Shown one piece after another: positions 8,984 to 52,147 of a DNA stretch of 64,000 bases (its first letter is position 1; every line of letters starts with the position of its first letter). The position numbers and the translations under genes are program-made. The stretch lies in the UHGV virus genome UHGV-0072281, one strand, 5' to 3'. Under the pieces are notes generated by a model. That model ran no database searches. It was not told the DNA's origin and was given only the letters and a program-made list of their open reading frames with translations. Source of the stretch: a virus.

Positions 8984-8996
8984 GGAGCATCCTTAA

Positions 8997-9521
8997 ATGC
9001 AAATTCGTTTTAGTCCACCGTGGGAAGTTCAGCCTAACATAGATAAAGGCGCTGCCGTTAAAAGTGTAGAATTGCTCCAGGCAGGGTTCTTTAACTGGTT
9101 ATATGACTGTCCGAATGGTTTCAGTTCTATCATCTTACCTGAAGTAAGTCGTTCTGCTATTTATAAAGCGTTAATGGCTCCGCCTGTACTTCCAGGTAAA
9201 TATTATGATCAGGTGTTACGTCTGGTCGAATCAGGCGAAAAGGTTTCCCTTGACGATTTATATGGGGAAACAATTCCTTGTCGCTTACGCTGGGTCTTTA
9301 CCCAACGTGGTGATACGATTGTGGCGTCATTTGCAGAAGCGAAGTCCGGTTCGGGTTTTTCTTCGGGTGAAGACCACGCTGCGAAAAAGATGTTCTGCGC
9401 AGAACTTTTTAAATATATGCGTACCAAGACTCGCGTCGTGGATGACTGCTTCAGTACCTCAACGCAGTTTGCCGCTAACGAAGTGCTGACGCAATTATAC
9501 GCATGTCATTTATCTCATTAA
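8997..9521 (+). CDS. hypothetical protein (174 aa)
   Basis: ATG with GGAG upstream; immediately precedes the highly expressed 761-aa gene. Confidence 0.55.
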   Translation: MQIRFSPPWEVQPNIDKGAAVKSVELLQAGFFNWLYDCPNGFSSIILPEVSRSAIYKALMAPPVLPGKYYDQVLRLVESGEKVSLDDLYGETIPCRLRWVFTQRGDTIVASFAEAKSGSGFSSGEDHAAKKMFCAELFKYMRTKTRVVDDCFSTSTQFAANEVLTQLYACHLSH

Positions 9522-9533
9522 GGTATTAAACAA

Positions 9534-11819
9534 ATGAAAGATACCCGAATCTCTAATTTAGAGAAACTCGTAGAAGCCGGTACTAGTCTGGCCCAAAACG
9601 TCATCGGCAACAACACCGCCAGCGAAATGTGGAAGACGATTGTTGCAGGCGAGTCCGTACGTAGCAACGCAAAAGTATTTGGCGCTCTGCGTGACGAAGC
9701 ATCACAGCACTATGCCAACGCTTTTGGCGGCAAGAAAATGTCTCATGCTGCGACCGTCGCTTCCGCAATGATTCTGGGCGTAGCTAACCACGGTAAAGAC
9801 CTGCAAGAACGTGTTGCCCAGGAATACGCTAAGCCGGAATTCCACACCAAGTATAACCTGGATATTGGTATCCCTGGTGCGCAAGGTGGTGATTGGGGTC
9901 GTGAGCGTATGGTTGTTGCTCAGGAATACTACAGCAACAAAGACTACGACAAAAACTTGGGCCTGACCTGGACCCTGAACGTACGTGCTCTGGAAACTCA
10001 GTCCAAGTTTGCTGAAACACTGTTCCCGACCATTACCGTTGACACCAACGATGTTGGTATTACCGTACGTACTAAAGTGACTACCGTTTCTCGCGGTATC
10101 ATGAACGCGCTGCTGAGCAAAGACGTCGTTGAAGATCATCGTCGTCCGCTGCACAACGCACTGACTGACCACACCGTTCTCCAGGACGAAGCGATCAACA
10201 TCGTTCCTTACGTAATGGAAACCGGTGAAAACCAGGAATACTTCGTAAGCGAAGATCTGGTTCCGAACGAAAAAGTTCGCCTGGGTCGTGTACCTCCGTA
10301 TCCGACTAACTACCTGAGCTTTGCAAACGACACGCTGAACCTGTTCCAGCTGTCTGCGCATCCGGGTATCGTTCAGGAAGGTTACGATGAAACTGATGAA
10401 ATCGCACCGGGTTGTGCTCTGGGCAGCCTGCTGATTTCTGTACGTAAACCGGCCGAAGAAGCGAAAGCGGGTAAATTCATCAAACTGCACGTTCGTGACA
10501 TGCAGTTCGCAACCTTCCAGCGTCCTGCTGAAGGTGACGGCCGTGAACTGGTTCTGCAATTCCGTCGTACCGCGTTCTCTCTGAATGCGAAAACCACTGA
10601 CTGGAAAGGCGACGCTATTCCGGCACTGCAAGCACTGGGCCAGAACTCCTACACCCTGCGCTACGTTATCACCATCACCATGTCCCTGTTCACCAGCGGC
10701 CAGTTCGGTGGTAAAGTAGACATTTCCGGCCACAAACTGGAAATCGAAGGTCTGTACGATGCAACTGGTAACAAAGTTGATACCAAGTCTGGTACCGGCA
10801 AAGTTATCCTGGATGGCCTGAAACTCGAACTGATGGGCTGGCGCTTCGATGGTACTCGTACCAACGAAAACCGTCGTACCCAGGGTCTGCTGCTTGACCC
10901 AATTTGGGAACAGGAAAACTACAAACTGCAATACGGTTCTCCGATTCTGACCAAGTCTCCGGTTGGTGTTGAATACGACGACACTGAACGTCTGGATGAC
11001 CTGATCTCTGCGGTGAACATCCGTAACGAACAGCTGGCTATTACTCAGACGCTGTCTTACACTGAAGCAGTACGTAACGCAGCCGCTGCGATGATCACTC
11101 CGTGGGACAAACCGGCTATCCGTGGTCTGGGCCGTCACTGGGTTGCTCCGTGGTTCAAAGAGTCTGACTACAAAGTCGATGAAGTTGTTCAGTCTCTGGA
11201 TACCAAAGAAGCGCTGATCAACGCTCGTCAGGGTCTGTTGCAGCGTATCGGTAGCCAGGTAACTCAGGCTATCCAGGATTCTCGTTTCATTCCTGCACTG
11301 CGCCTGCTGACCGCTGATCCGGACATTCTTCCGAAAGTTATTATCGCAACTGACGAACCGACTGCATCCATGCTGCTGCTGGTTCAGGGCGACCAACGTC
11401 TGCTGGGCGACCGTTATGAATACGAAGTCGTTACCACCAACGATGACCGCTGGCGTATCTACAACGCAGCTGACGATTCCTGGACTCGTCGTCTGCAATG
11501 GTTCCTGAAAGTTCCGACTGCGGACGATGGTTCCTACTGCGTACTGAACTGGGGTAACCACTTCTGGTCTCCGATCATGGTTACCAACATCAACATTCAG
11601 CGTAACGGTTCTACTTCTAAAGAACTGGCTGTACAGCCGCGTAACGCGCATATCTGCCACTGCCCGATCACTGGTCTGATTTGGGTTAAAGGCATCACCA
11701 AACTGGTTGAAGAAAAACTGGCTTACAACGTTTCTGTAGAACAGAACGGCCAGAAACAAACCGAAGGTGGTGTAGCAGGTAACCTTGCTGTCGAAGGCAA
11801 AGCTACCGCTGGTAAATAA
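9534..11819 (+). CDS. major virion structural protein, candidate major capsid protein (761 aa); tail sheath not excluded
   Basis: Codon usage sharply different from neighbours (CTG, CGT, GGT, ACC, AAA, GAA dominate); strong terminator directly downstream; size is in the range I recall for jumbo-phage capsid proteins (from memory, unverified). Confidence 0.45.
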   Translation: MKDTRISNLEKLVEAGTSLAQNVIGNNTASEMWKTIVAGESVRSNAKVFGALRDEASQHYANAFGGKKMSHAATVASAMILGVANHGKDLQERVAQEYAKPEFHTKYNLDIGIPGAQGGDWGRERMVVAQEYYSNKDYDKNLGLTWTLNVRALETQSKFAETLFPTITVDTNDVGITVRTKVTTVSRGIMNALLSKDVVEDHRRPLHNALTDHTVLQDEAINIVPYVMETGENQEYFVSEDLVPNEKVRLGRVPPYPTNYLSFANDTLNLFQLSAHPGIVQEGYDETDEIAPGCALGSLLISVRKPAEEAKAGKFIKLHVRDMQFATFQRPAEGDGRELVLQFRRTAFSLNAKTTDWKGDAIPALQALGQNSYTLRYVITITMSLFTSGQFGGKVDISGHKLEIEGLYDATGNKVDTKSGTGKVILDGLKLELMGWRFDGTRTNENRRTQGLLLDPIWEQENYKLQYGSPILTKSPVGVEYDDTERLDDLISAVNIRNEQLAITQTLSYTEAVRNAAAAMITPWDKPAIRGLGRHWVAPWFKESDYKVDEVVQSLDTKEALINARQGLLQRIGSQVTQAIQDSRFIPALRLLTADPDILPKVIIATDEPTASMLLLVQGDQRLLGDRYEYEVVTTNDDRWRIYNAADDSWTRRLQWFLKVPTADDGSYCVLNWGNHFWSPIMVTNINIQRNGSTSKELAVQPRNAHICHCPITGLIWVKGITKLVEEKLAYNVSVEQNGQKQTEGGVAGNLAVEGKATAGK

Positions 11820-19922: not shown

Positions 19923-22106
19923 ATGCAGAGATTTAACATATTTCGTGAACAGAACATCGCGTTGGCGAAATCACTGATTATTAAATCAGAATCAATCGCA
20001 CAACAGATGAATCTGGCAATAACCGAGAACGGCGGTTTCGTTTCCGATAACCGAAGTACGTGGCGATACTACCTGCATTTAGCAGGACAACGTCACGAAT
20101 GGGATAAGCCCATTTACATAACGTCGCTCGACACGCAAGAGCAGATAGAATTAACGACAGCCAACCTGTCCCGTCATAAAAAGACCTCAAACGTATTTCG
20201 TTCGAACGGTGAGTACATTGAGGAGCTGATCAGAACGTATCCTGACTACGCGATTTATATCCGAGGTGTGTTTAATCCGGTGGATATAAACTACGCCATC
20301 CGTGTGGCTGATTGTTCTATTCTCTATTACGACAGTTCATTAGTGGAGTCGCAAGAGACGTCACTGATGTCGAGATTGGAAGACAGAATAAGGGCAGCTC
20401 ACGTTCGCTATATGTCAGAAGGGTGGAAAGTTCACAACGATGCGTTCGTGTTAGCATTCTACTGTATTCTGTATCCGCAGCTACCCGGCATTATCGGCTA
20501 TATCCGTTCTTCTTTACAGCATACCACGGAAACACACTCGTTTTACGTGACAGAGTTCTTAGCATCACACCAAGAACTTCACGAGTTTATGCCGTATCTG
20601 ACCCAGAAACAGAAATTCATTCTTTATCGGAACATTCGTTACTGGGAACGTAACTCGGGGAAAGAGGAGATTTTCGACTGGCAGATTGATGCATTGCTGA
20701 CAGGTTGGGGGATGCCTGCGGTTGGGTATAATGTTGCACAACAGATACACGAACCGAAGGATGATGATGACTCCACGTTAACACCGTTACCGATCGGTTA
20801 TCAGCAATCGCTTAACTATACGGAAAAGGATTCTGGTCGAGACCTTGACATTGTAACGACGACAGACATTATCCAGAAGGAAGTCGCGTTAGCGTACAAT
20901 AACCCGGCGTACGAACCGGAGTATCAGGAAGACTTAGATACCCGTTTAAGTTTAACGCAATACCCTAACCTGAAAACCAAACTCATTGAAGTTACAGCAG
21001 TCGACCCAGAAGCGATTGAGCGCTTCGAGTATCTGCATAACCTCTTTAACGAATGGGTACATCTCGTCGCGAAAGGGAAATACAACATTTACCACGAGAT
21101 TCTTAACCCAACAAACGGGGATACCTTAAAGCTTAGCTCAAAAGAGTTATTGGCGCTGTTCTTATACGCGGCGTATAAAGGGTATTCTGACGTTGCGTTA
21201 GAAGAGATTCCTGCGTTCAACGTATTCGGGGTGTTAATCAAACGTTGGGTTTCGTTCGACGAAATGGAACAACATTTAATCCCGAGCTGGGAAAACCGTT
21301 TCGAAGCGTTGATTAACTATTATACCGATACACACACAGAAGTCGTCGGAACGATTCTTAGTGCTGATGAACTCTACGACACGGTTAATGAAATCATTAC
21401 CCAGAAACGTCGTCGTTGGCGTTATAGTCAAAACCGTCGGAAGATTCCTGACCGTGCTGCGGGCTTGATGCTGTTTAACTACCATTACCGTGATTATCGC
21501 TGCGATTTAAAACTGAACTACCGTAACTACGATGAGTTCTTTAAAACGTTCGGGTTAGATTATACATTGGTTTCGGCGGAGACGTGGCAAGACATTGCTA
21601 TTGATGCGTTTAACACCGCGACTAACCTGGAAACCCGTGCAACGATTTCACAGTCTGAGATTCAGCGTGCAATGGTACGATTGATGACGAAGTTGTCATC
21701 CTACACCGTACATTTTGCTGCGCGAATGGGGTCAGATTCTTACGACGTTATGGACCCGCTCTGTCCCATCTTAGGGGATATCCCTATGAGTGGGGAGGGG
21801 ACAATTACAATTATTGAACCCCTCTTAGGCGTACAGCAAGTTACGCGTCACCAGTATATATCCACCGACACTGTGTTACCGGCAGCGCCTGTTATTAAAG
21901 AACTGTCGATGCCGCAGCACATCAAACTCAGGATGAACATTTACATGGGCATCCGAGTGAAAGTAACACAGCAGGTTGTGGTGGATATTAACGAGCCGAC
22001 TACCGGGGTTGTTAAAGTGAAATCTTCGCTTGACGATTGGACGTTAAACGAACAGGTGAAAATTAACGATCTTGACGGCTTCACGCTTGACCAGCTACCT
22101 AAGTGA
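19923..22106 (+). CDS. hypothetical protein (~727 aa)
   Basis: ATG at 19923 (track start 19911 is a TTG); diverges head-to-head from the 905-aa gene with an 11-bp gap. Confidence 0.6.
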   Translation: MQRFNIFREQNIALAKSLIIKSESIAQQMNLAITENGGFVSDNRSTWRYYLHLAGQRHEWDKPIYITSLDTQEQIELTTANLSRHKKTSNVFRSNGEYIEELIRTYPDYAIYIRGVFNPVDINYAIRVADCSILYYDSSLVESQETSLMSRLEDRIRAAHVRYMSEGWKVHNDAFVLAFYCILYPQLPGIIGYIRSSLQHTTETHSFYVTEFLASHQELHEFMPYLTQKQKFILYRNIRYWERNSGKEEIFDWQIDALLTGWGMPAVGYNVAQQIHEPKDDDDSTLTPLPIGYQQSLNYTEKDSGRDLDIVTTTDIIQKEVALAYNNPAYEPEYQEDLDTRLSLTQYPNLKTKLIEVTAVDPEAIERFEYLHNLFNEWVHLVAKGKYNIYHEILNPTNGDTLKLSSKELLALFLYAAYKGYSDVALEEIPAFNVFGVLIKRWVSFDEMEQHLIPSWENRFEALINYYTDTHTEVVGTILSADELYDTVNEIITQKRRRWRYSQNRRKIPDRAAGLMLFNYHYRDYRCDLKLNYRNYDEFFKTFGLDYTLVSAETWQDIAIDAFNTATNLETRATISQSEIQRAMVRLMTKLSSYTVHFAARMGSDSYDVMDPLCPILGDIPMSGEGTITIIEPLLGVQQVTRHQYISTDTVLPAAPVIKELSMPQHIKLRMNIYMGIRVKVTQQVVVDINEPTTGVVKVKSSLDDWTLNEQVKINDLDGFTLDQLPK

Positions 22107-22113
22107 GAAAACC

Positions 22114-22641
22114 ATGGCATATCGCGTCGACTTAACGAAAACTCCGAAACAAATTCTGGTAGATCGTATTAACTACGTTTTCGGGGTATCCTATACCACT
22201 GACAACATCGATTTTAACGATAAAGGTGTGCAACCACTGACGAAAGACGAAGCCCGTCGTTATGGACTGGAATCGAAAGTGGCCGCTGACTTTAAAAACG
22301 GTGTTGCGGGGAACCAGGAATTCATCTTAACCCGTGTTGACCTGGCAGCGTTCTTAGCTGACGAACCGGTTACGGTACCGAAAGGCGAAGTAACCAGCAG
22401 CCAAGAACTGGCAGACTATATCGTTGCTCAGACCGGTATTGATTTGACCAAAGACGACATTATGATCGAGCCTATCAGTGAGGAACTCGATTCTTATGAT
22501 GTTCGCTTAGTCCCGAATCACTTATCTTTTAAAGGAACGATTCCGGTCGTATTTACTGACCCCACACCACGTACGTTGGCGTCTCTCGTGACGAAACTTG
22601 CGCTGGACGGGTTCCGCCCTGGAGAATTAATCAATGTCTAA
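22114..22641 (+). CDS. hypothetical protein (~175 aa)
   Basis: ATG at 22114 in frame with track ORF; coupled to neighbours. Confidence 0.5.
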   Translation: MAYRVDLTKTPKQILVDRINYVFGVSYTTDNIDFNDKGVQPLTKDEARRYGLESKVAADFKNGVAGNQEFILTRVDLAAFLADEPVTVPKGEVTSSQELADYIVAQTGIDLTKDDIMIEPISEELDSYDVRLVPNHLSFKGTIPVVFTDPTPRTLASLVTKLALDGFRPGELINV

Positions 22642-23521
22642 TGTCAAAGTTTACGACGGTAAACTCTCGACGGTAACACTTAATGCGATGCGTCTGGCTA
22701 CCGCATTAATTACCGGTGCCGATGTGCAATACCCACAGAAGTCCACACTGAATGAGTTTTATAAGCTCATGCAAACCCCAGTGCCGGACGGTAAAGCACG
22801 TCCCCATTTGCAGTACATGGCGATTGGTAACCGTGGCCACATGGTCGACACATCAGATGTTGTTGCTGATGTTGTTCCTGTAGCTAAAGAACCTATCGCG
22901 TCCGGGATGTTTTCACGCGTTCCGTTTGTCCTGCGTACTAAAGACAACGATTTGTCTGATGAACAGCGTAAGAACTACGCTTTCCGTACTCTGGAAACCA
23001 TCAACAAACGTGAGTATTGGGCGTACTATTTAAAACGCATTGACATGCGTGCAGTAAAAACTACCGACTACGACATTAAGCGTGAGAACGGTGTTGAAAC
23101 TGTAGAAGACTTTGTTTATACGGACACTGAACTGAACCCAGTACCGAAAGTGTTGCCGGATTACGATTACGATGATGACGGTACTGTTGCAATTCCAGAT
23201 GGCCGTTATGTGGAATCAGGTGCAGACCTGGTTATCCCGTGGACGGACTTTGATGTTCAGGAGTACATGAACGTGACCAGCATTATGCGCGGCAGCCCTC
23301 GTAGTTCGATTATCTCTGAACTGGCACTGTGCTCCGGTTTAGACCAGGTAACGTCTGGTGACTCTGCGACTGGTTCGAAGTTCAGTTACACTGAAGCTAT
23401 TGGTGTACAAGCCCTGTATTACATTTCGATGTTTACTAACCTGGCGCAGACGAACGATAAATTGTCACTGACAATCCGTATCGGTCAACCTGCGCCGTTC
23501 TTCTTAGGGACAGCGAATTAA
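22634..23521 (+). CDS. hypothetical protein (295 aa)
   Basis: GGAGA RBS; overlaps upstream stop. Confidence 0.55.
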   Translation: MSNVKVYDGKLSTVTLNAMRLATALITGADVQYPQKSTLNEFYKLMQTPVPDGKARPHLQYMAIGNRGHMVDTSDVVADVVPVAKEPIASGMFSRVPFVLRTKDNDLSDEQRKNYAFRTLETINKREYWAYYLKRIDMRAVKTTDYDIKRENGVETVEDFVYTDTELNPVPKVLPDYDYDDDGTVAIPDGRYVESGADLVIPWTDFDVQEYMNVTSIMRGSPRSSIISELALCSGLDQVTSGDSATGSKFSYTEAIGVQALYYISMFTNLAQTNDKLSLTIRIGQPAPFFLGTAN

Positions 23522-42526: not shown

Positions 42527-42572
42527 CCTACCGCCCGATTCTATGGGCGGTAGGTGTTTTATTTTTTTTTTT
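42527..42572 (+). terminator. rho-independent terminator
   Basis: cctaccgccc/gggcggtagg 10-bp stem followed by a T-rich tract. Confidence 0.75.
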
Positions 42573-42588: not shown

Positions 42589-43152
42589 GTGGCCACATCT
42601 TACGTACCTGATTTGAGTCTGACCTCAGCAGAGCTAGTGGTCGCTTTAATCAATCATGATAACGGGTTACAGCTTACGCTAAACGAAATCCGTATTAGCG
42701 GAACCGTAACAAACCCATCACCAACAACTTCGCGTCGTAACACCATCACCGAAATCAGTAAAATCAGAAAACCGGATGGTGCGTCTGTTGTGGTCTACTA
42801 CGACAGACTTGACGCCGATGAGGTATTAACGTCTGAACCTATTTTGATTTCGTTAGACGGTACCGAAGCGAATATCCGTGACGTTCTGAGTGTTGTAAAT
42901 GAACACTGCGGTACGAACTTACAGCCTGAAGACTTACGCGTTTCTGATATTACTTCAGGTAACGATCCTATTGCCGTTAACGTTGCCGACGATTCACCTG
43001 CGTGGATGAATGCGTTTATGGTGACGTTATTTGATAAAACTGAGCGTGCGTTAGCGAACGAAGAAGATGAAATCTTCTGCATCGGTGACGATAGCGTTCT
43101 TACCTTTGAGGTTCCAGATGACGACTCAGCTGAAGAAAACCCGACTACATGA
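42589..43152 (+). CDS. fibre-associated protein, paralogue 1 of a four-member family
   Basis: GTG start with GGAGGG upstream; shares PDLSLTS, VNHD, NLQ-x-DL and C-x-GDDSVLTF with the 48883 gene; precedes fibre 1. Confidence 0.55.
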   Translation: MATSYVPDLSLTSAELVVALINHDNGLQLTLNEIRISGTVTNPSPTTSRRNTITEISKIRKPDGASVVVYYDRLDADEVLTSEPILISLDGTEANIRDVLSVVNEHCGTNLQPEDLRVSDITSGNDPIAVNVADDSPAWMNAFMVTLFDKTERALANEEDEIFCIGDDSVLTFEVPDDDSAEENPTT

Positions 43153-43357
43153 ACTTGATGATTTTTACCGGTAATGGAGGACAAAGCAAACTTTTATCAA
43201 GACTTAGCAAACCAAAATCATGAAAACGCGAAATTGAACATCGCTTTCACGTTAGAAGATGATGTATTAAAACCAGGGCAATAGTAACCCGCTTATAAAA
43301 AATTGGGGGGTAAACTACTCTCCTGATCTTTTAGCTCCCGATAGAGAATTAAATATC

Positions 43358-46300
43358 ATGGCTAAAGCGGTAAAGAAAATTCGTTTACACGATTTACGTC
43401 CATACACCGGTGATATCGGTGAAGGCGTTTTACTTTTCTCCAAGGATGAGAAAGATTATAAGTTACCAGTCCGTGAGGTTATTGCAGATATTGACACCGT
43501 ACGTAATGCGGTGGCTGATGCACAAACAGCAGCAGCACAATCACAAGAAGCTGCAACTCAGGCTACGCAAGCAAAAGTTTTAGCAGAAGCAGCAAAACAA
43601 CAAACTGACACAGTTGCGGCAACGGTTGCACAACAAGCGCAAACCGTAACCGAAAAAGCAACAGAAGTCAGTACAAAACATACCGAAGTGTTAGCCGCGA
43701 AAACGGCGGTAGACGCTCAGGCTGTGTCCATTAATGAGAAAGCACAAGCGGTAGCGACAAGTGAGGCAAACGTCACACAAGCAGAAACTACCGTTACGAA
43801 GAAAGCAGAAACTGTTGCCACACAAGCCGGGCGGGTCGAACAGTCACTTACGGCAGTTAACGAAGCTGTTGCGTCGGTAGAGTCGTCGAAAGCTGCCGTA
43901 GAAGCTAAAGCAACACAAGTTACTTCAGACAAAGAAACCGCAGAGAATGCGGCAACTCGTTCTGAGGCAGCCGCTAAGCGTGCGGAAGAAATCGTTGCTC
44001 AAGGTACTGTTGATGCAACAACGACCAGTAAAGGTGTCGTTAAACTTAATAATACCTTAACCAGTGACTCTGTTACTGAAGCGGCTACACCGTCAACGGT
44101 TAAGCAGTTAAATGATGAATTGCAGTTAAAAGCAAACCGTCACAACCCAACTTTTACCGGTGTGGTAAAAGCACCGACTCCTGCTTCGGATTCTAACGAC
44201 ACGAGCGTCTCAACGACTGCATGGGTACGGCAAGCGATTGCTGAATTAGTGGACTCTTCACCCGAGACGTTAGATACGTTATCAGAAATTGCAGCCGCGT
44301 TAGGAAACGATCCTAACTTTGCGACAACGATAACGAACCAACTAGCGGGTAAACAGCCGTTAAGTCCGTTACTGACAGCGATTGCCGCAGTCACCACCGC
44401 TGCAAACAAACTCCCTTACTTTACCGGTAGTAATCAGGTAGGGTTAGCGGATTTCACCTCGACTGCTCGCGAATTATTAGCGAAAGGGTCGACGGCCGAT
44501 ATCATCAGCTTCCTGGGGTTGAAAACCACCGTTGATAAAGCTGCGGGCGCTATGCAACGTAGTTCTAACGGTGCCGATATTCCCGATAAAGCCACCTTCG
44601 CGAAGAACATCGGGTTGTCAGCAGAGACGTACCTGAAGTTTAATGGGGAGATGCCAGTAGATGCAGACATCAACACCTTCGGCCCGGTTGAAGCGTTTAT
44701 GGGCGTTTGGTCTAAAGCCACGTCTACGAACGCAACAGTTGCAAAGAATTTTCCAGAAGAAAACGCAGTTGGTTGTTTAGAAGTTTTCAAAGCGGGTAAC
44801 TACAGCGGAAGTCAACGTTTTACTGTACGTAACGGTAACATCTATACACGTCATCTTACTGCTGCATGGAATGGGACAAACGGTCCTTGGTCAGAATGGC
44901 GTAATGTTGCTGGTTCCGCCAGAACGTTGAACGAACAAAATAATCTGAATGACTTGGGTGGTGAGGCCGCACTAGGTGTTTGGAGAAACAGTTCGAGTAC
45001 ATTAGCAACAACCGCGCTGAATTATCCTGAAGAAGGCTCTTTTGCCCAGGGCGTATTAGAAGTTCTCAAAGGTGGCAACTATAGTTACACACAACGCTAC
45101 ACTACCCGCAGAGGCAATGTATACGTTCGTTGTCTACAAGCCACGTGGGACGCTTCAAACCCGCAATGGGAAGAATGGCGCTGTGTTGGTCATCAATCTG
45201 TCAGCACATATTTCGAAGGCGATCTCGACACGTTAACTTCGCCTAACCGTTATAGCATTACTGATAAAGCGACAAACGTTCCTTTAATCGACGGTACTAA
45301 AATTATCGGTATCTTGGACGTCAGTCGTCGTTTTGATAACATTAGTGTCGAACAAAAATTCACCTCGTTTGGTTCTGGGAGCAAAACTACAGGGCGTATT
45401 TTCACACGTGTATTCTCCGGTCAATCAAACGGTAAATGGAGTGAGTGGCGAGAGGTTTTCACCTCGTATTCACTTCCGTTAGTTTTAGGTATCGGTGGGG
45501 TTGCAGCTAAGGTTGACCCGTTAGACTGGCAAACCTACGACTTCGTTCCTGGACAGATGTTAACGACGCCGTTGAACACCATGAAAAACATTCCTGCAGG
45601 AATGGATTGGGGTACTATTGACGGTAACTTAGTTAACATCCTTGTAGGGCCGTCTGACGACACCGGTACTGGTCGGAGTATGCTGGTTTGGCGTAGCACA
45701 GTGTCTGTTGCTAACTATCGCTTCTTTGCGGTACGTATCGCTGGTGAGAAGGGTAGTCGTACGATTACGCCGCGTCAGATGCCTGTGTTGAACGCAGCGC
45801 ACACCTGGTCAGAGAAACAAACGTTCTCTAAAGGTTTAGCGGGTGAATTAACCGGTAATGCTTCTTCAGCAACGAAACTTCAAACAGCCCGTTTAATCGG
45901 CGGCGTAAGTTTCGACGGCACCAAGGACATTGCACTCCCTGGCGTTAACGCACAAGGTACGCAGAACACCACTGGGAATGCGGCTACCGCAACCAAATTA
46001 CAAACGGCTAGAAATATCAACGGTGTGAAATTCGATGGCTCTGGAGACATCAATATCAACACCTTAGTAGGTCGTGGACGTGTCACTGCTCTGGCTGGAT
46101 CAAACAAAGGTACACCTGGTATCCAGATGTACGAGGTTTACAATAACGGTTATCCGACCGCGTATGGTAATTTACTGCATTTAGGTGGTGCTACTGCCGT
46201 AGGTGAAGGTGAACTACTGATCGGTTGGTCTGGTACCAGTGGCGCACACGCACCTGTTTATATCCGTAGTCGTCGAGACACTACAGATGCGCCGTGGTCA

Positions 46301-47674
46301 GAATGGGCGCAAGTTTATACTGCACGAGACAGCATTCCGGGTGTCAACACCACAGGTAATCAGGATACGACCGGAAACGCAGCTACCGCTACAAAACTTA
46401 AAACCACACGTAAAATAGGCGGGGTTAATTTTGACGGAACGGGTGATATTAACCTACCAGGTGTAAACCAGCAGGGCAACCAGAACACAACAGGTAACGC
46501 TGCGACAGCGACTAAACTCCAGACTGCCCGAAATATTGGTGGTGTGGCTTTCGATGGTACTAAAGACATCAGTTTACCTGGGGTAAACCAAACAGGGAAT
46601 CAGTCAACTACGGGGAACGCTGCTACTGCAACGAAGTTGCAGACAGCAAGAAGTATCAACAACGTACCATTCGATGGTTCGAAAGATATTACTCTAACGC
46701 CAAGTAATATCGGTGCGGCTGCCTCCTCAATGACTTGGTTAAATACCGGGGATAATGGTGCAGCGCTTAGTACAGATTCTTTTATTACTTTGTTGCAAAA
46801 TAACGGGGCTTTTAATTCCAGAACTTGGATAGCCCGATGCTCTTGGGCGTATGCTCAAAATGGCGTGATTCCAGATAGTGAAACAAAGTGCGGTACTATT
46901 CCACTTGCAGGCTCAGTTATTGAAGTTGTAAGTTTTGGGATGACCAACTACACCATTCGTATCACAACCCCTACGACGACATCGGTTAGCGGAGCAAAAA
47001 CCAACTCTGAGTTTATTTATTGCTATAATGGTAAAGATTATTCTCCAGGTTGGCGACGGCAGTATAACACTGTTAATAAACCGTCTGCTAGTGACGTTGG
47101 CGCTCTACCAACTGGTGGCGGTACTGTCAGTGGCGATTTGACGGTTAATGGTAAACTGGTTACGAAAAATGCCGATTTTCGAATTGCTTACGGTAGTTAC
47201 GGTTTCATTTTACGTAACGATGGCAATAGCACCTATTTCTTAGTAACAGCATCTGGTCAAGCTGCAACGGGTTCCTGGAATAACTTACGACCGATGTATT
47301 TTAGCAACTCTACCGGTCAAGTAACCTTCGGGCACAACGTTACTGGTAACGGGAACGGTTCGTTTAACGACGTACAGATTCGTTCTGACCGTCGTAACAA
47401 ACGTAATCTGGTGAAACTGGATAATGCATTAGACCGTTTAGAACTCCTTACCGGGTATCTGTACGAAGTTCAACATCCTGACGATGGATGGAATACTTCG
47501 GTAGGCTTAATTGCCCAGGATGCATTAGTTGCGTTACCTGAATTGGTTACTGAAGACGATGACGCTATTTCTGGTGAAAAACGTTTACGTTTGAACTATA
47601 ATGGTGTTATTGCGTTGTTGGTAGAGGGCATTAAAGACCTTCGTCGTGAGCTTAAGGAACTCAAGGGGAAATAA
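43358..47674 (+). CDS. long tail fibre protein (gp37-like distal fibre) with C-terminal intramolecular chaperone (peptidase S74-type) domain
   Basis: 1438 aa; Ala/Gln-rich coiled-coil N-terminal region; five copies of TGNAATATKLQTAR-I-GV-FDG-KDI; three ~70-aa tandem domains; C-terminal SDRRNKRNLVKLD...YNGVIALLVEGIKDL matches the self-cleaving chaperone signature. Confidence 0.85.
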   Translation: MAKAVKKIRLHDLRPYTGDIGEGVLLFSKDEKDYKLPVREVIADIDTVRNAVADAQTAAAQSQEAATQATQAKVLAEAAKQQTDTVAATVAQQAQTVTEKATEVSTKHTEVLAAKTAVDAQAVSINEKAQAVATSEANVTQAETTVTKKAETVATQAGRVEQSLTAVNEAVASVESSKAAVEAKATQVTSDKETAENAATRSEAAAKRAEEIVAQGTVDATTTSKGVVKLNNTLTSDSVTEAATPSTVKQLNDELQLKANRHNPTFTGVVKAPTPASDSNDTSVSTTAWVRQAIAELVDSSPETLDTLSEIAAALGNDPNFATTITNQLAGKQPLSPLLTAIAAVTTAANKLPYFTGSNQVGLADFTSTARELLAKGSTADIISFLGLKTTVDKAAGAMQRSSNGADIPDKATFAKNIGLSAETYLKFNGEMPVDADINTFGPVEAFMGVWSKATSTNATVAKNFPEENAVGCLEVFKAGNYSGSQRFTVRNGNIYTRHLTAAWNGTNGPWSEWRNVAGSARTLNEQNNLNDLGGEAALGVWRNSSSTLATTALNYPEEGSFAQGVLEVLKGGNYSYTQRYTTRRGNVYVRCLQATWDASNPQWEEWRCVGHQSVSTYFEGDLDTLTSPNRYSITDKATNVPLIDGTKIIGILDVSRRFDNISVEQKFTSFGSGSKTTGRIFTRVFSGQSNGKWSEWREVFTSYSLPLVLGIGGVAAKVDPLDWQTYDFVPGQMLTTPLNTMKNIPAGMDWGTIDGNLVNILVGPSDDTGTGRSMLVWRSTVSVANYRFFAVRIAGEKGSRTITPRQMPVLNAAHTWSEKQTFSKGLAGELTGNASSATKLQTARLIGGVSFDGTKDIALPGVNAQGTQNTTGNAATATKLQTARNINGVKFDGSGDININTLVGRGRVTALAGSNKGTPGIQMYEVYNNGYPTAYGNLLHLGGATAVGEGELLIGWSGTSGAHAPVYIRSRRDTTDAPWSEWAQVYTARDSIPGVNTTGNQDTTGNAATATKLKTTRKIGGVNFDGTGDINLPGVNQQGNQNTTGNAATATKLQTARNIGGVAFDGTKDISLPGVNQTGNQSTTGNAATATKLQTARSINNVPFDGSKDITLTPSNIGAAASSMTWLNTGDNGAALSTDSFITLLQNNGAFNSRTWIARCSWAYAQNGVIPDSETKCGTIPLAGSVIEVVSFGMTNYTIRITTPTTTSVSGAKTNSEFIYCYNGKDYSPGWRRQYNTVNKPSASDVGALPTGGGTVSGDLTVNGKLVTKNADFRIAYGSYGFILRNDGNSTYFLVTASGQAATGSWNNLRPMYFSNSTGQVTFGHNVTGNGNGSFNDVQIRSDRRNKRNLVKLDNALDRLELLTGYLYEVQHPDDGWNTSVGLIAQDALVALPELVTEDDDAISGEKRLRLNYNGVIALLVEGIKDLRRELKELKGK

Positions 47675-47677
47675 AGG

Positions 47678-48220
47678 ATGGCAGTTGTTGAAGTTCCAGG
47701 TTATATCGGTTCTTCTGCAAAGGAAGTTACTGGCGAAGAGATGATGTCTGAAGCGATGACCGAACTCGGCGTTGTCGTACCAGGGATGATGTCTGAAATG
47801 GCAGGTCTGTCAATGGGTTGCTATGTAACGTTTGAGGAGTGGACTACCGTTGAAGATGGCCTTGATGTTCGATGGATCGGTGCGTCTACTTCCGAGTGGA
47901 CAGACGGCTACGGCAAACCGGTCGTTAAAGGAAAAATATCCGGGGCGAAGATGTTTGGTTTGAATGTCGAAGCGGAGCTGATCGGAATGCACTATAAAAA
48001 GCATCCGCGATTCCCTTGGTCAGTCGAACTAAAATGTCGCTGCGAAAAAGGTAGCAATTTCAGTTATACGTTAGACGGTGTAAGCGGTTCTGTATCGAGT
48101 GATGGTACCGGTACAACCGGAATGCAAATTCGTACATTCAAATTTAACAATTTCAGTGCAGCATTTAAGGAAAAGATAGAGCAAGTTGGTGTCAAGATGC
48201 CAACATCACGTAAATATTAA
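47678..48220 (+). CDS. gp38-like tail fibre adhesin, copy 1
   Basis: N-terminus MAVVEVPGYIGSSAKEVTGEEMMSEA...MMSEMAGLSMGC closely matches the conserved N-terminal attachment domain of T2-type gp38 adhesins (recalled from memory); directly follows the fibre gene. Confidence 0.55.
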   Translation: MAVVEVPGYIGSSAKEVTGEEMMSEAMTELGVVVPGMMSEMAGLSMGCYVTFEEWTTVEDGLDVRWIGASTSEWTDGYGKPVVKGKISGAKMFGLNVEAELIGMHYKKHPRFPWSVELKCRCEKGSNFSYTLDGVSGSVSSDGTGTTGMQIRTFKFNNFSAAFKEKIEQVGVKMPTSRKY

Positions 48221-48227
48221 AAGAGTA

Positions 48228-48253
48228 GCGTAGGGGTGACCTCCCCCCTACGC
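48228..48253 (+). other. hairpin followed by a G10 tract in place of a T run
   Basis: gcgtagggg/cccctacgc stem; its C6 run could alternatively pair with the downstream G10. Confidence 0.5.
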
Positions 48254-48264
48254 GAATCTTAACA

Positions 48265-48274
48265 GGGGGGGGGG
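48265..48274 (+). repeat. homopolymeric G10 tract, 3 nt upstream of the adhesin-2 start codon
   Basis: Ten consecutive G at -12 to -3 relative to ATG 48277. Confidence 0.9.
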
Positions 48275-48276
48275 TA

Positions 48277-48780
48277 ATGGCGGTTAACTCGGGTTGGGTC
48301 GGTTCTTCGGCTAAGAGCGAAACGGGCGAACAGTGGATGAGCGCTGCGGGTGCCAAATTGGGATTGGGTAAACCTTTTATGATGAGTCAAATGGTGGGAC
48401 GATCTATGGGCTGTAAAATTTCAACTGCTGCATATAGTGATTCTTTAGGTAAGAAATGGGGTGCTGTGGGATCAAGTTGGCCATTAACTCAGAAAAATCA
48501 GGGAACCATTCAAAACGCGGGTAACTGCGGGGTGGGAACTTTAGTAGGTATAGAGTTACAATTAACGACGGTAGTTGCCAACGCAACGCCTACTCTAGCG
48601 GTCTATTTACAAGGCGGCAGGGCCTCTAACATCACTGCAAATCTAGGCGGTAACACTTGTGCGCTGACCTATCAGCAGGTTATTAATGGCCAACATTATT
48701 ACTGGACCAATAACATTAGTGCCGCGTTCCAAAACGTGATGAAATCGACCGGTACACTAAGAGATTTCAAAATTAGTTAA
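48277..48780 (+). CDS. gp38-like tail fibre adhesin, copy 2 (divergent C-terminal domain)
   Basis: N-terminus MAVNSGWVGSSAKSETGEQWMSAA...MMSQMVGRSMGC paralogous to copy 1; Gly/Asn/Thr-rich C-terminal region; flanked by G10 tracts. Confidence 0.55.
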   Translation: MAVNSGWVGSSAKSETGEQWMSAAGAKLGLGKPFMMSQMVGRSMGCKISTAAYSDSLGKKWGAVGSSWPLTQKNQGTIQNAGNCGVGTLVGIELQLTTVVANATPTLAVYLQGGRASNITANLGGNTCALTYQQVINGQHYYWTNNISAAFQNVMKSTGTLRDFKIS

Positions 48781-48817
48781 TTATTTTTCAAACGAATGTG
48801 TTTGAAAACGTAATCGA

Positions 48818-48827
48818 GGGGGGGGGG
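48818..48827 (+). repeat. second homopolymeric G10 tract
   Basis: Ten consecutive G, 55 nt upstream of the GTG start at 48883. Confidence 0.9.
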
Positions 48828-48882
48828 TGAAGTGTTTTTAGCCAACATTTTATGTCTCCCCAACCGTAGGAGGTAAATATAC

Positions 48883-49395
48883 GTGGAACAATTCACGCCA
48901 GATTTGTCGTTAACTTCACTTAACATGGTTATTTCACTGGTTAACCATGACCTCCAACTTGACTTGCAAGAGAATGAGGTCGAAGTCAGTGACGTAAAGA
49001 CCAGTGACGAAATGGAACGTGACACCACTGCTGTTGTAAAGATAAAACGTTCTGGTAACAGAACGTTACAAATCTACTACAACCGTTTAACTGCAGAGCG
49101 GTGGTTAAACCGACAACCTGTACTTGTAAAAGTAACAGGCGAAGGGTTTAATGCGCACGATCTAATCGAATCCATCAACACCGTTTGTGGTGCTAACTTA
49201 CAAACCGACGATTTAACCGACCAGTCGTTCACGGTGGGTAAAGACGCGGTAATATTTAGCATCGCTCCGAGTTCCCTCGGCTACAAAGGTCAGTTCTCCG
49301 TGGTGGTTTTCGGTCCAGATGAAACACCGTGTGGTATCGGTGACGATTCTGTCGTGCTAACGTTTGACAATAAAATCTTAACCTTTGGAGAGTAA
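48883..49395 (+). CDS. fibre-associated protein, paralogue 2
   Basis: GTG start with AGGAGGT upstream; paralogous to 42589; precedes fibre 2. Confidence 0.55.
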   Translation: MEQFTPDLSLTSLNMVISLVNHDLQLDLQENEVEVSDVKTSDEMERDTTAVVKIKRSGNRTLQIYYNRLTAERWLNRQPVLVKVTGEGFNAHDLIESINTVCGANLQTDDLTDQSFTVGKDAVIFSIAPSSLGYKGQFSVVVFGPDETPCGIGDDSVVLTFDNKILTFGE

Positions 49396-49398
49396 TAG

Positions 49399-51531
49399 AT
49401 GAGTCAGCCAATTGGAAAGAAGCGTATTCATGAGCTGGAAACATTTGAAGGTGAATTAGCAGGAGTCGTTCTGCTGATGTCCAAAGACGACAAAGAATAT
49501 AAACTTGACGCATCTCGTTTACAAAACGATAAGCTGTATCTAGCTTGCGGTACACCTTTTCCTAAACTAGTATTCCAAAACGATAAAACACTTTACAATA
49601 TTAATCCGTACAGTGACTACGACACTTATGAAGTTTCTGCAAATAAAGGTCGGGTATCTAAAGTTACTCGTGCCACATTTAGCGTGATGGCTGGGTCTTT
49701 ATCGGTTGGCGAGAAAATACAACTTACAGTTACGCGCAATGGCGTACCATTTCAATTTGAAGTTACCGTATCGGGACCGCGTATCACTACTCCCACTTGG
49801 ACACTTCCAGTTAATGGCGGTAAATTGAGCGTAACGCCAACCTTTGAAGTAACTGACTATCAAGCCTATCCATATACCAACACCGGTAATCAACAGACCG
49901 CTGCCAGTTGGGAAATTTCCACTAGTGAAGATTTCTCAACTACAGTTTTCCAATCACTGAACGACACCGTCAACAAAACAACCATCAGTATCCCAGAAGG
50001 TAAGTTAGAACCAGGTCAAACTTACTACGCACGTGTTCGCTTCCATAACGCAGTAACCGAAAGTGATTGGTCCGTTGTTCAATTCTCAGTCGGCGAAGCA
50101 TTTATTCAGCGTCCTGCACTGATCGAACCCACCGTAGACATGGTGTTAAGCGCATCGAATATTACACTTAAAACTGATGTTTTTAAATGGGTCGGTGACG
50201 AACCTGCGGAGACCCACGTATCGACTGACTGGCAGGTTACTTACGGTAGCAACGATTTTGACGAAATGAATAATCTCGTTAACCAATTAGAAGATGCGAT
50301 TAACCTGACGTCGCTTAAATTACCGTCTGATCGGGTTTACGTTAATAACAGTTATCGTGCACGCGTGCGTTTTCGTGGTGAGAGAAGCGTCAGTGATTGG
50401 TCTGAACCTTTAACGTTCCGTGTAAGTCGCGGGAACGTACCAACAAGTGAATTCCAGTCAATTTCTGCTTCTGGATTTACAGGTAATTCAATCGGTGCTG
50501 AGTTGGCATGTACTGACGACGGTTTGCTGTTTGCTGCTACTGGCGTTGCACAGAAAGCGAAATTCTTACATATCTTTAAGAAAGACTTCCCGTCTTACAA
50601 CAAAGTTGCCTCTTTAACAGCTGCTACTGAGGTTGACGCAGACAGAGATGGTCGCTGTCCGGTCAGTATGTCAGCCGACGGTAAGATTATTGTTGTCGGT
50701 GTTAGCGCATCTAAAGCTAACGAAGACCACGGCGAAGTTATCGTTTACCGTAACCCAGATAACGCTGAGTGGAGTACAATCAACGGAATAACTTTAGCGG
50801 GATTACCCACAGAAGGGTTCCATGGCCTTGCAGTAAAACTGTCAAAAGACGGCAATCGTTTGATTGTGGGTAACGGTACGAAAGTGCTGTCTATGTATTC
50901 CAATACCGATCAATTTGCTACACGTACGGCTGTGTCGCCGACACTAAGTGCCGAAGACGCCACTTGTGGTGGTATTGGTAGCATTGCAATGTCTGAAGAC
51001 GGTAACGGTTTAGTGCTTGGCGAAACTAACGGAACGAAATTCCACGTACTGGCTTGGGAATCGGATAGTTGGGTGACTAAGGCATCTATTACACCAAAAG
51101 ACTTGACTGAGAAAGCAACGATTAAAGTCGCTGCTTCTTCTGACTTGTCTACGATTCTTGTTTCTGTAGTTGAGACACACAAATACTACGTTTACAAGAA
51201 AACCGGTGATAGTTGGTCTCTGTTCCAAACCTTGGATTATACCGAACTGGATTACTCCATTACTTCTACCCGTTACCCGACGGGAGACATTAATGTTGCG
51301 CCTTCCGGAAGCTGGTTAATTTTCGGTATGGTGGGTTCGTTGGGTTCTATTTTCGAATTTCGTAATAGTACCTACCAACGACAAAATAGCATTTACGGCA
51401 GTAGTCTTAGCGATCCTGAGAATTACCACTTCTATACGTCACAAGCCATCAGTGCACAAAACGATTTGTTCGTCGGTGCTGATGTTAAAGAAAGTGCTTC
51501 GTACTTCCCACAAATCAAAGTTTACATGTAA
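49399..51531 (+). CDS. second tail fibre or receptor-binding protein (710 aa)
   Basis: N-terminal ~45 aa homologous to fibre 1 (KKRIHELE...GVVLLMSKDDKEYKL); two tandem domains ending Y-ARVRF...SDWS; C-terminal repeated S-x-DG-x-x-IVVG blade-like motifs. Confidence 0.7.
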   Translation: MSQPIGKKRIHELETFEGELAGVVLLMSKDDKEYKLDASRLQNDKLYLACGTPFPKLVFQNDKTLYNINPYSDYDTYEVSANKGRVSKVTRATFSVMAGSLSVGEKIQLTVTRNGVPFQFEVTVSGPRITTPTWTLPVNGGKLSVTPTFEVTDYQAYPYTNTGNQQTAASWEISTSEDFSTTVFQSLNDTVNKTTISIPEGKLEPGQTYYARVRFHNAVTESDWSVVQFSVGEAFIQRPALIEPTVDMVLSASNITLKTDVFKWVGDEPAETHVSTDWQVTYGSNDFDEMNNLVNQLEDAINLTSLKLPSDRVYVNNSYRARVRFRGERSVSDWSEPLTFRVSRGNVPTSEFQSISASGFTGNSIGAELACTDDGLLFAATGVAQKAKFLHIFKKDFPSYNKVASLTAATEVDADRDGRCPVSMSADGKIIVVGVSASKANEDHGEVIVYRNPDNAEWSTINGITLAGLPTEGFHGLAVKLSKDGNRLIVGNGTKVLSMYSNTDQFATRTAVSPTLSAEDATCGGIGSIAMSEDGNGLVLGETNGTKFHVLAWESDSWVTKASITPKDLTEKATIKVAASSDLSTILVSVVETHKYYVYKKTGDSWSLFQTLDYTELDYSITSTRYPTGDINVAPSGSWLIFGMVGSLGSIFEFRNSTYQRQNSIYGSSLSDPENYHFYTSQAISAQNDLFVGADVKESASYFPQIKVYM

Positions 51532-51540
51532 GGAAACGCG

Positions 51541-52101
51541 ATGAAATATGCTTATTTAAAAGACGGTAATGTGATCGACTGGAATGTTACCGAAGACATG
51601 ATTGCTTTGCGTGGCCACACTGTAGATATTTATACGCCTGTAGTAGAATCTGCTAAACCGGTTGTTAACCCTGATTGTTATATCGTGTTCGAAACAACAC
51701 CAAAACTGGTAAAAGGCAAGCTGGTTCAACAGTGGGTGACTGAAGTGCTGCCTAAAGAAACGGTAGTACGTAACCAGAAGGCACGTTTAGCGGAAATTCG
51801 TTATGCGAAAGAAACTGCCGGGATTACGTTTAAAGACCAAACTATTCCTACGACACGTGATGTACGTTATCAGTTAATTCAGTCTAAACACGTTGATTCT
51901 ACGCAACCTATTAACTGGAAGCTAGGCGATACGTGGCTAAGTCTTACTCAGGAAGACATTGATGCGCTGCTGGTTGCAATCGCAACTTATGTTGAGAAAT
52001 GCTACGCGGCAGAACGCACAGTCTCCGAGAAAATCACTAAGGTGAAAGCACCTGAAAAACTGGATGTAGAAACCTTATTTAACGACGCTTTCGCAGCGTA
52101 A
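51541..52101 (+). CDS. possible tail fibre assembly or chaperone protein (186 aa)
   Basis: Position directly after a fibre gene; faint resemblance to Tfa-type chaperones. Weak. Confidence 0.3.
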   Translation: MKYAYLKDGNVIDWNVTEDMIALRGHTVDIYTPVVESAKPVVNPDCYIVFETTPKLVKGKLVQQWVTEVLPKETVVRNQKARLAEIRYAKETAGITFKDQTIPTTRDVRYQLIQSKHVDSTQPINWKLGDTWLSLTQEDIDALLVAIATYVEKCYAAERTVSEKITKVKAPEKLDVETLFNDAFAA

Positions 52102-52105
52102 CACG

Positions 52106-52147
52106 GTAGCAGGGGCTAAGCCCCTGCTACCTTTTTCTTTATTTTTT
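52106..52147 (+). terminator. rho-independent terminator
   Basis: gtagcagggg-ctaag-cccctgctac hairpin followed by a long T-rich run. Confidence 0.8.

Follow-up and report, generated by a model that had tools for sequence, protein, structure and literature searches.

The window analysed here, a 64,000-nucleotide stretch of the virus genome UHGV-0072281, encodes two large fibre proteins, fibre 1 and fibre 2, which share a homologous N-terminal anchor of about 45 residues and are unlike beyond it. Comparison with related phages makes it fairly probable that this anchor is a clade-specific docking peptide, through which SPN3US-like jumbo phages would attach interchangeable receptor-binding proteins to their outer (peripheral) baseplate, the most likely partner being either the short DUF7941 protein whose gene lies just upstream or the star lobe's DUF7941/gp139 structure. 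The virion-proximal plug would be kept, with distal parts swapped by recombination at or just after the anchor.

The two fibres share a conserved N-terminal anchor

A BLASTP comparison of fibre 1 with fibre 2 gave one significant segment, an ungapped alignment of residues 1–36 of each protein (E 3e-7), in which 16 of the 36 positions are identical (44%) and 26 are positive (72%); all remaining segments had E values above 2. An initial annotation, made by a model from the DNA without database searches, had described the two proteins as alike over some 45 residues and completely divergent afterwards, and both parts of that description are borne out. The pairwise alignment of the first 60 residues, which the same annotation had proposed as a check, is significant as well, with a Smith-Waterman score of 88 that was reached by none of 20,000 shuffles (21.6 ± 4.2, maximum 50). 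Homology of the anchor can be traced to about residue 41–47, and the junctions with foreign distal modules in relatives lie at residues ~45–47.

To locate further copies, we scanned the 1,059 six-frame segments of the window with an anchor hidden Markov model (HMM) built from four sequences, and the matches were both fibres (E ~1e-27) and a truncated remnant at 43118–43165 (E 1.4e-4), described below. Pfam scans of both fibres found no N-terminal anchor or branching family, such as the T7 gp17-type or T4 gp10-like families.

The shared segment is short (36–47 residues), which is what might arise by chance, from low complexity, or from a signal in the nucleotide sequence such as a region of translation initiation. 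Such an origin is nevertheless hardly credible, and we regard it as effectively refuted by the sequence comparisons: besides the outcome of the shuffling, the DNA of the anchors is only ~52% identical, yet 12 residues are invariant in the four-sequence alignment, and the anchor profile matches proteins down to E 2e-22 among 1.84 billion, the match starting at residue 1 in ~16 of 22.

The anchor is joined to different distal parts in related phages

Searching phage genomes by tblastn with the N-terminus of fibre 1, we found matches at the starts of SPN3US gp123 (157 amino acids, aa) and Asesino gp140, at 50–58% identity, both encoded directly 3' of a short DUF7941 gene and 5' of a gene for a tail protein of about 1000 aa. 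SPN3US gp123 and gp124 were detected at low abundance in purified virions and were not flagged ‘Head’ (PMC5694885 Supplementary Table 1), and the presence there of gp123, a tail-associated protein, indicates that anchor-bearing proteins are parts of the virion.

A word-indexed search with the 45-aa profile had returned two proteins only, which reflects the sensitivity limit of that search, and it was replaced by a profile search run exhaustively over 1.84 billion representative proteins. This gave 22 matches, about 16 of which are true anchors at the N-terminus; the proteins that carry them are 55 to 1494 residues long. Since so few were recovered from so large a collection, the anchor family is, as far as such searches tell, small and limited to this group of phages.

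Scanning viral contigs for the anchor and DUF7941 patterns yielded few loci, but the flanks of these were informative. HMM scans of the relatives' loci showed one to three intact anchors per module. In these syntenic relatives, at least seven unrelated distal parts are joined to the anchor at residue ~45–47: fibre 1, the 710-aa FN3/propeller fibre, a 706-aa SASA-esterase fibre (P0035), proteins of 273 aa, 205/206 aa and 188 aa, and the 153–157-aa gp123 type. According to PHROG matches, the 273-aa, 206-aa and gp123-type proteins carry, from residue ~47–58, C-terminal pieces of unrelated tail-fibre families, and the gp123 type also has a PHROG for the whole protein (phrog_9017).

The order of genes shows how the anchored proteins replace one another. 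The IMG/VR contig 078609 encodes, in order, DUF7941_A, a 153-aa anchor protein, a 1001-aa gp124 homologue, fibre 1, two gp38-like proteins, DUF7941_B and a 206-aa anchor protein, and the related locus L003 has anchors on fibre 1, on a 273-aa protein and on the propeller fibre. Locus L025 (GCA_958329725.1) keeps the gene order of the window, but a 706-aa SASA-esterase fibre (8001–10121; Pfam SASA and DUF6645) replaces fibre 2 and the adjacent DUF4376 gene. In L017, from a genome that shares the synteny of the window elsewhere, a 206-aa tip protein (7510–8130) occupies the slot that follows DUF7941_B.

Nucleotide identity between the window and L003 is 89–97% across DUF7941_B and falls to 54–77% from about position 49413, inside the anchor, and because of this drop we read the anchor region, from the sequence alignment, as a recombination boundary. 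Anchors in the slot after DUF7941_B are 49–76% identical to one another, compared with 39–56% to other anchors, regardless of the distal part that they carry.

The upstream DUF7941 proteins and the baseplate

The two proteins that the initial annotation had named as candidate adaptors, DUF7941_A and DUF7941_B, are paralogues (33% identity, E 1e-31), assigned to a Pfam family whose gathering cut-off is 27 bits (scores in Table 1). DUF7941_A is 45–47% identical to SPN3US gp122 and Asesino gp139. For DUF7941_B, an AlphaFold2 (AF2) model with a mean predicted local distance difference test (pLDDT) score of 82 had a sole significant PDB match, phiKZ gp127 (9xqd chain 0; E 5e-7, template-modelling (TM) score 0.63/0.70). 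The model thus points to a fold equivalent to that of a solved family member of the outer peripheral baseplate; in phiKZ, gp127 sits where the gp139 band of each star lobe ends (PMC13250141).

The order of a short DUF7941 gene followed by a fibre gene recurs in SPN3US, in Asesino, in the clade of the window and, distantly, in Goslar (gp91 followed by gp90), where gp86 is a DUF7941 domain fused to a glycosidase-type TIM barrel. By HMM, the ‘Paralog family B’ of SPN3US, with about 20 members, is DUF7941 (locus L023, SPN3US gp138–154). A model with one private adaptor per fibre was considered and fails, as anchors and short DUF7941 genes are not in a one-to-one relation in the relatives.

The window contains five DUF7941 genes (22072–22641, 42589–43152, 48883–49395, 60240–61088 and 61102–61581). 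It also encodes, at 22634–23521, a homologue of phiKZ gp139, the protein that forms the band of the star lobe (Pfam DUF7208, E 1e-100), and a short DUF7941 gene lies directly 5' of it, an arrangement that echoes the contact between gp139 and gp127 in phiKZ.

A decayed third anchor and a deletion

The truncated remnant is a decayed third anchor, which overlaps the end of DUF7941_A exactly where the intact anchor genes begin in SPN3US, Asesino and the related locus L013, and its score against the SPN3US or Asesino anchors was reached by none of 20,000 shuffles. Alignment of the window to L013 and L012 breaks off at 43158 and resumes at 43246, the window lacking 3.39 kb of L013 (7571–10958) that hold the rest of a 153-aa anchor gene and a 1001-aa gp124 homologue; L014 shows the same deletion arrangement with a longer stump. 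From this gap in the alignment it follows, on sequence grounds, that fibre 1 became the neighbour of DUF7941_A only through a deletion, and therefore that the pair of cassettes did not arise by simple tandem duplication. DUF7941_A itself is kept at 83–95% identity after the loss of its original neighbours. Within the deletion scar (43118–43288), the stump is followed by ~87 nucleotides unrelated to L013 or L012, including a 37-codon open reading frame beginning MEDKANFYQDLANQNH.

In treating the anchor as a genuine conserved module on unrelated fibres, and in placing a propeller on fibre 2, the initial annotation was sound; its account was incomplete in that the clade-wide spread of the anchor, the third, decayed copy and the deletion were missed.

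Architecture of fibres 1 and 2

Fibre 1, whose domains were assigned from Pfam, PHROGs and tblastn against phages (Table 1), is a long composite. Its Ala/Thr/Gln-rich stretch is assumed from the composition to be a helix or coiled coil, and its C-terminal Peptidase_S74 domain (Pfam E 3e-9) is predicted to be a self-cleaving chaperone. The last 112 aa are 82% identical to ORF65 of the Shiga toxin (Stx) phage P13374. Downstream are two side-by-side paralogues, the gp38-like adhesins a and b, which may cap fibre 1; the first ~150 nucleotides of adhesin b, at its 5' end, are 85–89% identical to Stx phages. The likeness of the S74 end of fibre 1 and of adhesin b (together window 47300–48780) to P13374 ORF65 and ORF66 indicates, by sequence similarity, horizontal exchange between this jumbo phage and the Sepvirinae.

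Fibre 2 probably ends in a seven-bladed beta-propeller. In an AF2 model built from 24 sequences (mean pLDDT 69), the propeller region mostly scored 60–90, and a Foldseek search of the PDB matched the C-terminal half to seven-bladed propellers such as G-beta and WDR5, with TM scores of 0.65–0.75 normalised to the target. The blade-like motifs from which the initial annotation had suggested a beta-propeller are thus corroborated by the model, at the moderate confidence that its mean pLDDT allows. The middle of the protein matched tandem FN3/Ig domains, such as those of titin and contactin, and Pfam recognised Ig_Rha78A_N. A distant relative of fibre 2, P0023, has a precomputed Pfam match to PF14312 and visible blade repeats. 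Residues 1–43, within the anchor, scored a pLDDT of only 36–43, as would be expected if the peptide takes up its fold when it binds.

Fibre 2 has no family in PHROGs and no tblastn match among 50,697 phage records, and against the C-terminal/propeller region of phiKZ gp131 the best BLASTP E value was 4.4, with no PDB sequence match. Fusion of the in-frame DUF7941_B to fibre 2 by stop-codon read-through was considered and rejected: TAA TAG precede the ATG of fibre 2, and the frame relation is not kept in L017 or SPN3US. The DUF4376 gene lies 3' of fibre 2 in L003 also, and it is absent where the slot after DUF7941_B holds the SASA-esterase fibre; by gene content, then, DUF4376 travels with the propeller fibre, and its product is possibly an assembly or accessory factor of that fibre.

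Layout of the module and identity of the window

Two strong terminator-like hairpins bracket exactly 42589–52101, and the genes between them are co-directional (Table 1), which suggests that the fibre module is transcribed as a separate unit and may be moved or regulated as a whole. Switching by an invertible segment, as for the fibres of Mu or P1, was considered and rejected, as there are no long inverted repeats and no invertase signature. Because the genes form a co-directional unit between two terminator-like sites without these features, co-expression of fibres 1 and 2 is likely, rather than a genetic switch between them.

Table 1. Coordinates of the fibre module and its borders in the window (aa, amino acids)
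Feature	Coordinates	Strand	Length	Remarks
Terminator-like hairpin	42527..42554	+		11-bp stem with 8 GC pairs, then a T run; just upstream of the module
DUF7941_A	42589..43152	+	187 aa	Pfam PF25613 (E 1e-19, 71.5 bits); SPN3US gp122 homologue
Decayed third anchor	43118..43174	+	18 codons	MTTQLKKTRLHELDDFYR, then a stop; 5' stump of a deleted gp123-like gene; anchor HMM E 1.4e-4
Fibre 1	43358..47674	+	1438 aa	Anchor, Ala/Thr/Gln-rich stretch, Phage_fiber_2 repeat, P1 S/P2 H/Goslar gp90-like shaft, Gp34_trimer, Peptidase_S74
Anchor of fibre 1	43358..43498	+	Residues 1–47	From BLASTP and anchor HMM
gp38-like adhesin a	47678..48220	+		Pfam Gp38_N (E 4e-11); phrog_1121, tail fiber adhesin
gp38-like adhesin b	48277..48780	+		Pfam Gp38_N (E 1e-20); 61% identical to Stx phage P13374 ORF66
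DUF7941_B	48883..49395	+	170 aa	Pfam PF25613 (E 1e-13, 51.4 bits)
Fibre 2	49399..51531	+	710 aa	Anchor; about three FN3/Ig-like domains (residues ~45–345); probable seven-bladed beta-propeller (residues ~365–710)
Anchor of fibre 2	49399..49539	+	Residues 1–47	Gene start after TAA TAG; not confidently folded in the monomer model
DUF4376 protein	51541..52101	+		Pfam PF14301 (E 2e-12)
Terminator-like hairpin	52105..52131	+		12-bp stem with 9 GC pairs, then a T run; closes the module

The window encodes a phiKZ-type major capsid protein (9534–11819; Pfam PhiKZ_MCP, E 5e-207). Out of the 50,697 phage records, those that match it best belong to Erwinia Erskinevirus phages and to Salmonella phage SPN3US, with an amino-acid identity of just 78–80%. 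By megablast, the sole match to the fibre region is a 150-nucleotide patch in common with Stx phages. Close relatives are metagenomic or assembly contigs only, of ~220–227 kb, some labelled Salmonella enterica, Shigella flexneri or E. coli. On the strength of the capsid matches and of relatives known only as contigs, we assign the window by sequence to an uncultured SPN3US-like, phiKZ-type jumbo phage of enterobacteria.

The phage collection contains no isolate of this ~225-kb clade, the capsid being no more than 80% identical to that of SPN3US or Erskinevirus, and the clade is probably a new genus. Its proteins (P0048, P0057, P0069 and similar matches) occur on contigs of 120–226 kb in NCBI assemblies labelled Salmonella enterica, Shigella flexneri and E. 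coli, suggesting a carrier-state or contaminating phage in bacterial isolates. Two entries of the protein collection, P0041 and P0046, are made of SPN3US gp123/gp124 sequence with its 20-residue blocks reversed, as if the 60-nucleotide lines of a record had been reversed; we take this for an artefact of the data and not for biology.

Discussion

The docking peptide that we propose would hold two co-expressed auxiliary fibres of different specificity, displayed together at the baseplate rim: one long and P1/P2/Stx-phage-like, possibly capped by the gp38-like adhesins, the other built of FN3 domains and a beta-propeller. SPN3US has gp131-like proteins of its own, gp168–170, encoded elsewhere, so the anchored proteins are probably auxiliary and would be additional to the canonical phiKZ gp131-type fibres. 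A narrower form of the proposal takes the anchor for the non-covalent counterpart of the Goslar fusions between DUF7941 and receptor-binding domains, plugging onto DUF7941 modules or filaments at the chimallivirus baseplate rim as a clade-specific plug-and-socket that has gone unrecognised. It is prompted by the pattern of fusion in Goslar and separate genes elsewhere, together with the conserved gene order, and we hold it tentatively.

Several observations weigh against docking on DUF7941. SPN3US gp122, the short DUF7941 protein, was undetected in wild-type virions in which gp123 and gp124 were detected and other members of the family are abundant (PMC5694885), and so is possibly not a stoichiometric adaptor, and the same study called ‘Paralog family B’ head proteins, since they were seen in a tailless mutant; this assignment conflicts with the Goslar preprint (bioRxiv 10.64898/2026.04.21.720040) and the phiKZ structure, both of which place the DUF7941 family on the peripheral baseplate. 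Some relatives have more anchors than short DUF7941 genes, namely three anchors to two DUF7941 genes in both contig 078609 and L003, and fibre 1 adjoins DUF7941_A only because of the deletion. The main gp131-type fibres of phiKZ attach beneath gp130 and not at gp127 (PMC13250141). Goslar gp92, whose residues 277–1188 are homologous to SPN3US gp124 (37–38% identity), is described as DUF7941-headed (bioRxiv 10.64898/2026.04.21.720040), but Pfam found no DUF7941 in it and a local HMM was marginal only; the stretch between its N-terminus and the gp124-like part has no similarity to SPN3US gp123. Finally, the idea that the anchor mimics the DUF7941 linker, which the Goslar preprint proposed as a head-to-tail docking element, was rejected after an hhalign comparison of 12 anchors with 8 full-length DUF7941 proteins (E 0.38).

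The failure to detect gp122, the uneven gene numbers and the position of the phiKZ fibres would all fit a different partner: the anchor would dock on a non-DUF7941 baseplate protein, such as a gp130-like protein or the gp139/DUF7208 band, and the short DUF7941 gene before the fibre would be merely syntenic or would provide a factor for fibre assembly that stays outside the virion. We consider this rather doubtful, in that the order of DUF7941 and then fibre is conserved as far as Goslar, where gp86 joins DUF7941 covalently to a receptor-binding or enzymatic domain, the family has a solved member in the baseplate, and DUF7941_A has been retained despite the loss of its neighbours.

The initial annotation had left the choice between a branched fibre and alternative fibres, and both arrangements seem to us unlikely, the former more so. 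Anchors of different proteins might co-assemble into a hetero-oligomeric base, giving a single branched fibre, much as the N-terminal segments of phiKZ gp131, gp133, gp134 and gp135 form a hetero-hexamer (PMC13250141), and genomes of the clade do have one, two or three neighbouring anchor proteins. However, with just one anchor protein each, SPN3US and Asesino must manage with homo-oligomers; the lineage of the window lost one of three anchors and kept the others; and the anchor sequence is unrelated to gp131-type N-termini, insofar as the anchor HMM had no match in a phiKZ gp132–135 locus that covers only the C-terminal part of gp131. Were the fibres instead alternatives that compete for one limited set of sites, virions would bear one or the other, or a stochastic mixture, as a hedge on host range. 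Similar anchors do imply similar sites, and the distal modules are completely different, but there is no sign of a switch, and the slot-specific anchor subfamilies and the divergence of the DUF7941 paralogues hint at sites that can be told apart. Simultaneous display of the two fibres through the docking peptide remains the arrangement that we favour.

Host recognition by jumbo (phiKZ-type) phages is poorly understood, the outer baseplate and fibres having been modelled only in 2026 for phiKZ and being unassignable in Goslar. A portable anchor with a defined boundary, found on at least seven natural distal modules, provides a testable rule for host-range change in this clade, and it comes with a named candidate socket, DUF7941, on whose location in the virion two papers disagree. 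If the plug-and-socket idea is true, jumbo phages would acquire P1/P2-like, Stx and other phage fibres alongside those of the gp131 type, giving a handle for re-targeting. The anchor also offers a practical design element for swapping receptor-binding domains on jumbo phages of Salmonella, Shigella and E. coli.

That receptor-binding domains can be exchanged behind a conserved docking peptide is already well known, so that the value of the present case lies in the specific system and not in the concept. What is new is the particular anchor family with its boundary, its setting among DUF7941 genes and the swaps that occur in nature; the family and its context appear to be undescribed so far, phrog_9017 for the whole gp123-type protein aside. 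DUF7941 itself is mentioned by just two papers in the library that was searched. By description, the closest functional analogue is the peptide of the phages KP32, K11 and KP34 (podophages of Klebsiella), in which the secondary receptor-binding protein starts with a conserved N-terminal peptide (29 aa in KP32 gp38) that was found experimentally to be necessary for incorporation into the virion and portable onto foreign receptor-binding domains (PMC13352976). As in the window, a short N-terminal peptide is borne by receptor-binding proteins with unrelated enzymatic parts. Its partner there is a T4 gp10-like branching domain of the primary receptor-binding protein in a podovirus, whereas here the phage is a jumbo myovirus, the context is DUF7941 and we infer the binding.

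Within the virus group, the nearest analogue is phiKZ gp131 with gp133–135, which have a shared N-terminal attachment part, divergent C-termini and a propeller at the tip of gp131 (PMC13250141). Homology of the anchored fibres to the N-termini of that family (gp132–135) or to the gp131 propeller was looked for and none was found: the anchor HMM had no match at E ≤ 0.1 in the six-frame translation of the phiKZ locus L006, which contains gp132–135 whole and the C-terminal part only of gp131, and the N-termini of gp132–135 appear by eye unrelated to the anchor. With the cassette of fibre and Gp38-like adhesin in Stx phages (Sepvirinae), fibre 1 has only its distal end in common; the anchor and most of the shaft are not shared.

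Goslar resembles the window in that DUF7941 modules occur together with fibre domains and with carbohydrate-binding or hydrolytic ones, for which a ‘fibre cloud’ has been proposed (bioRxiv 10.64898/2026.04.21.720040). It differs in lacking the 45-aa anchor: its receptor-binding domains either form one protein with DUF7941 (gp86) or begin with an N-terminus of the P2/Mu Phage_tail_fib type (gp90). The true homologues of the system are SPN3US gp122-gp123-gp124 and Asesino gp139–141, in which a short DUF7941 protein is followed by an anchor protein at the same genomic position. There, a single anchor stands on a 157-aa protein that is followed by a separate 1005-aa tail protein, whereas the window has lost this pair, of which the stump is left, and has two other anchored fibres.

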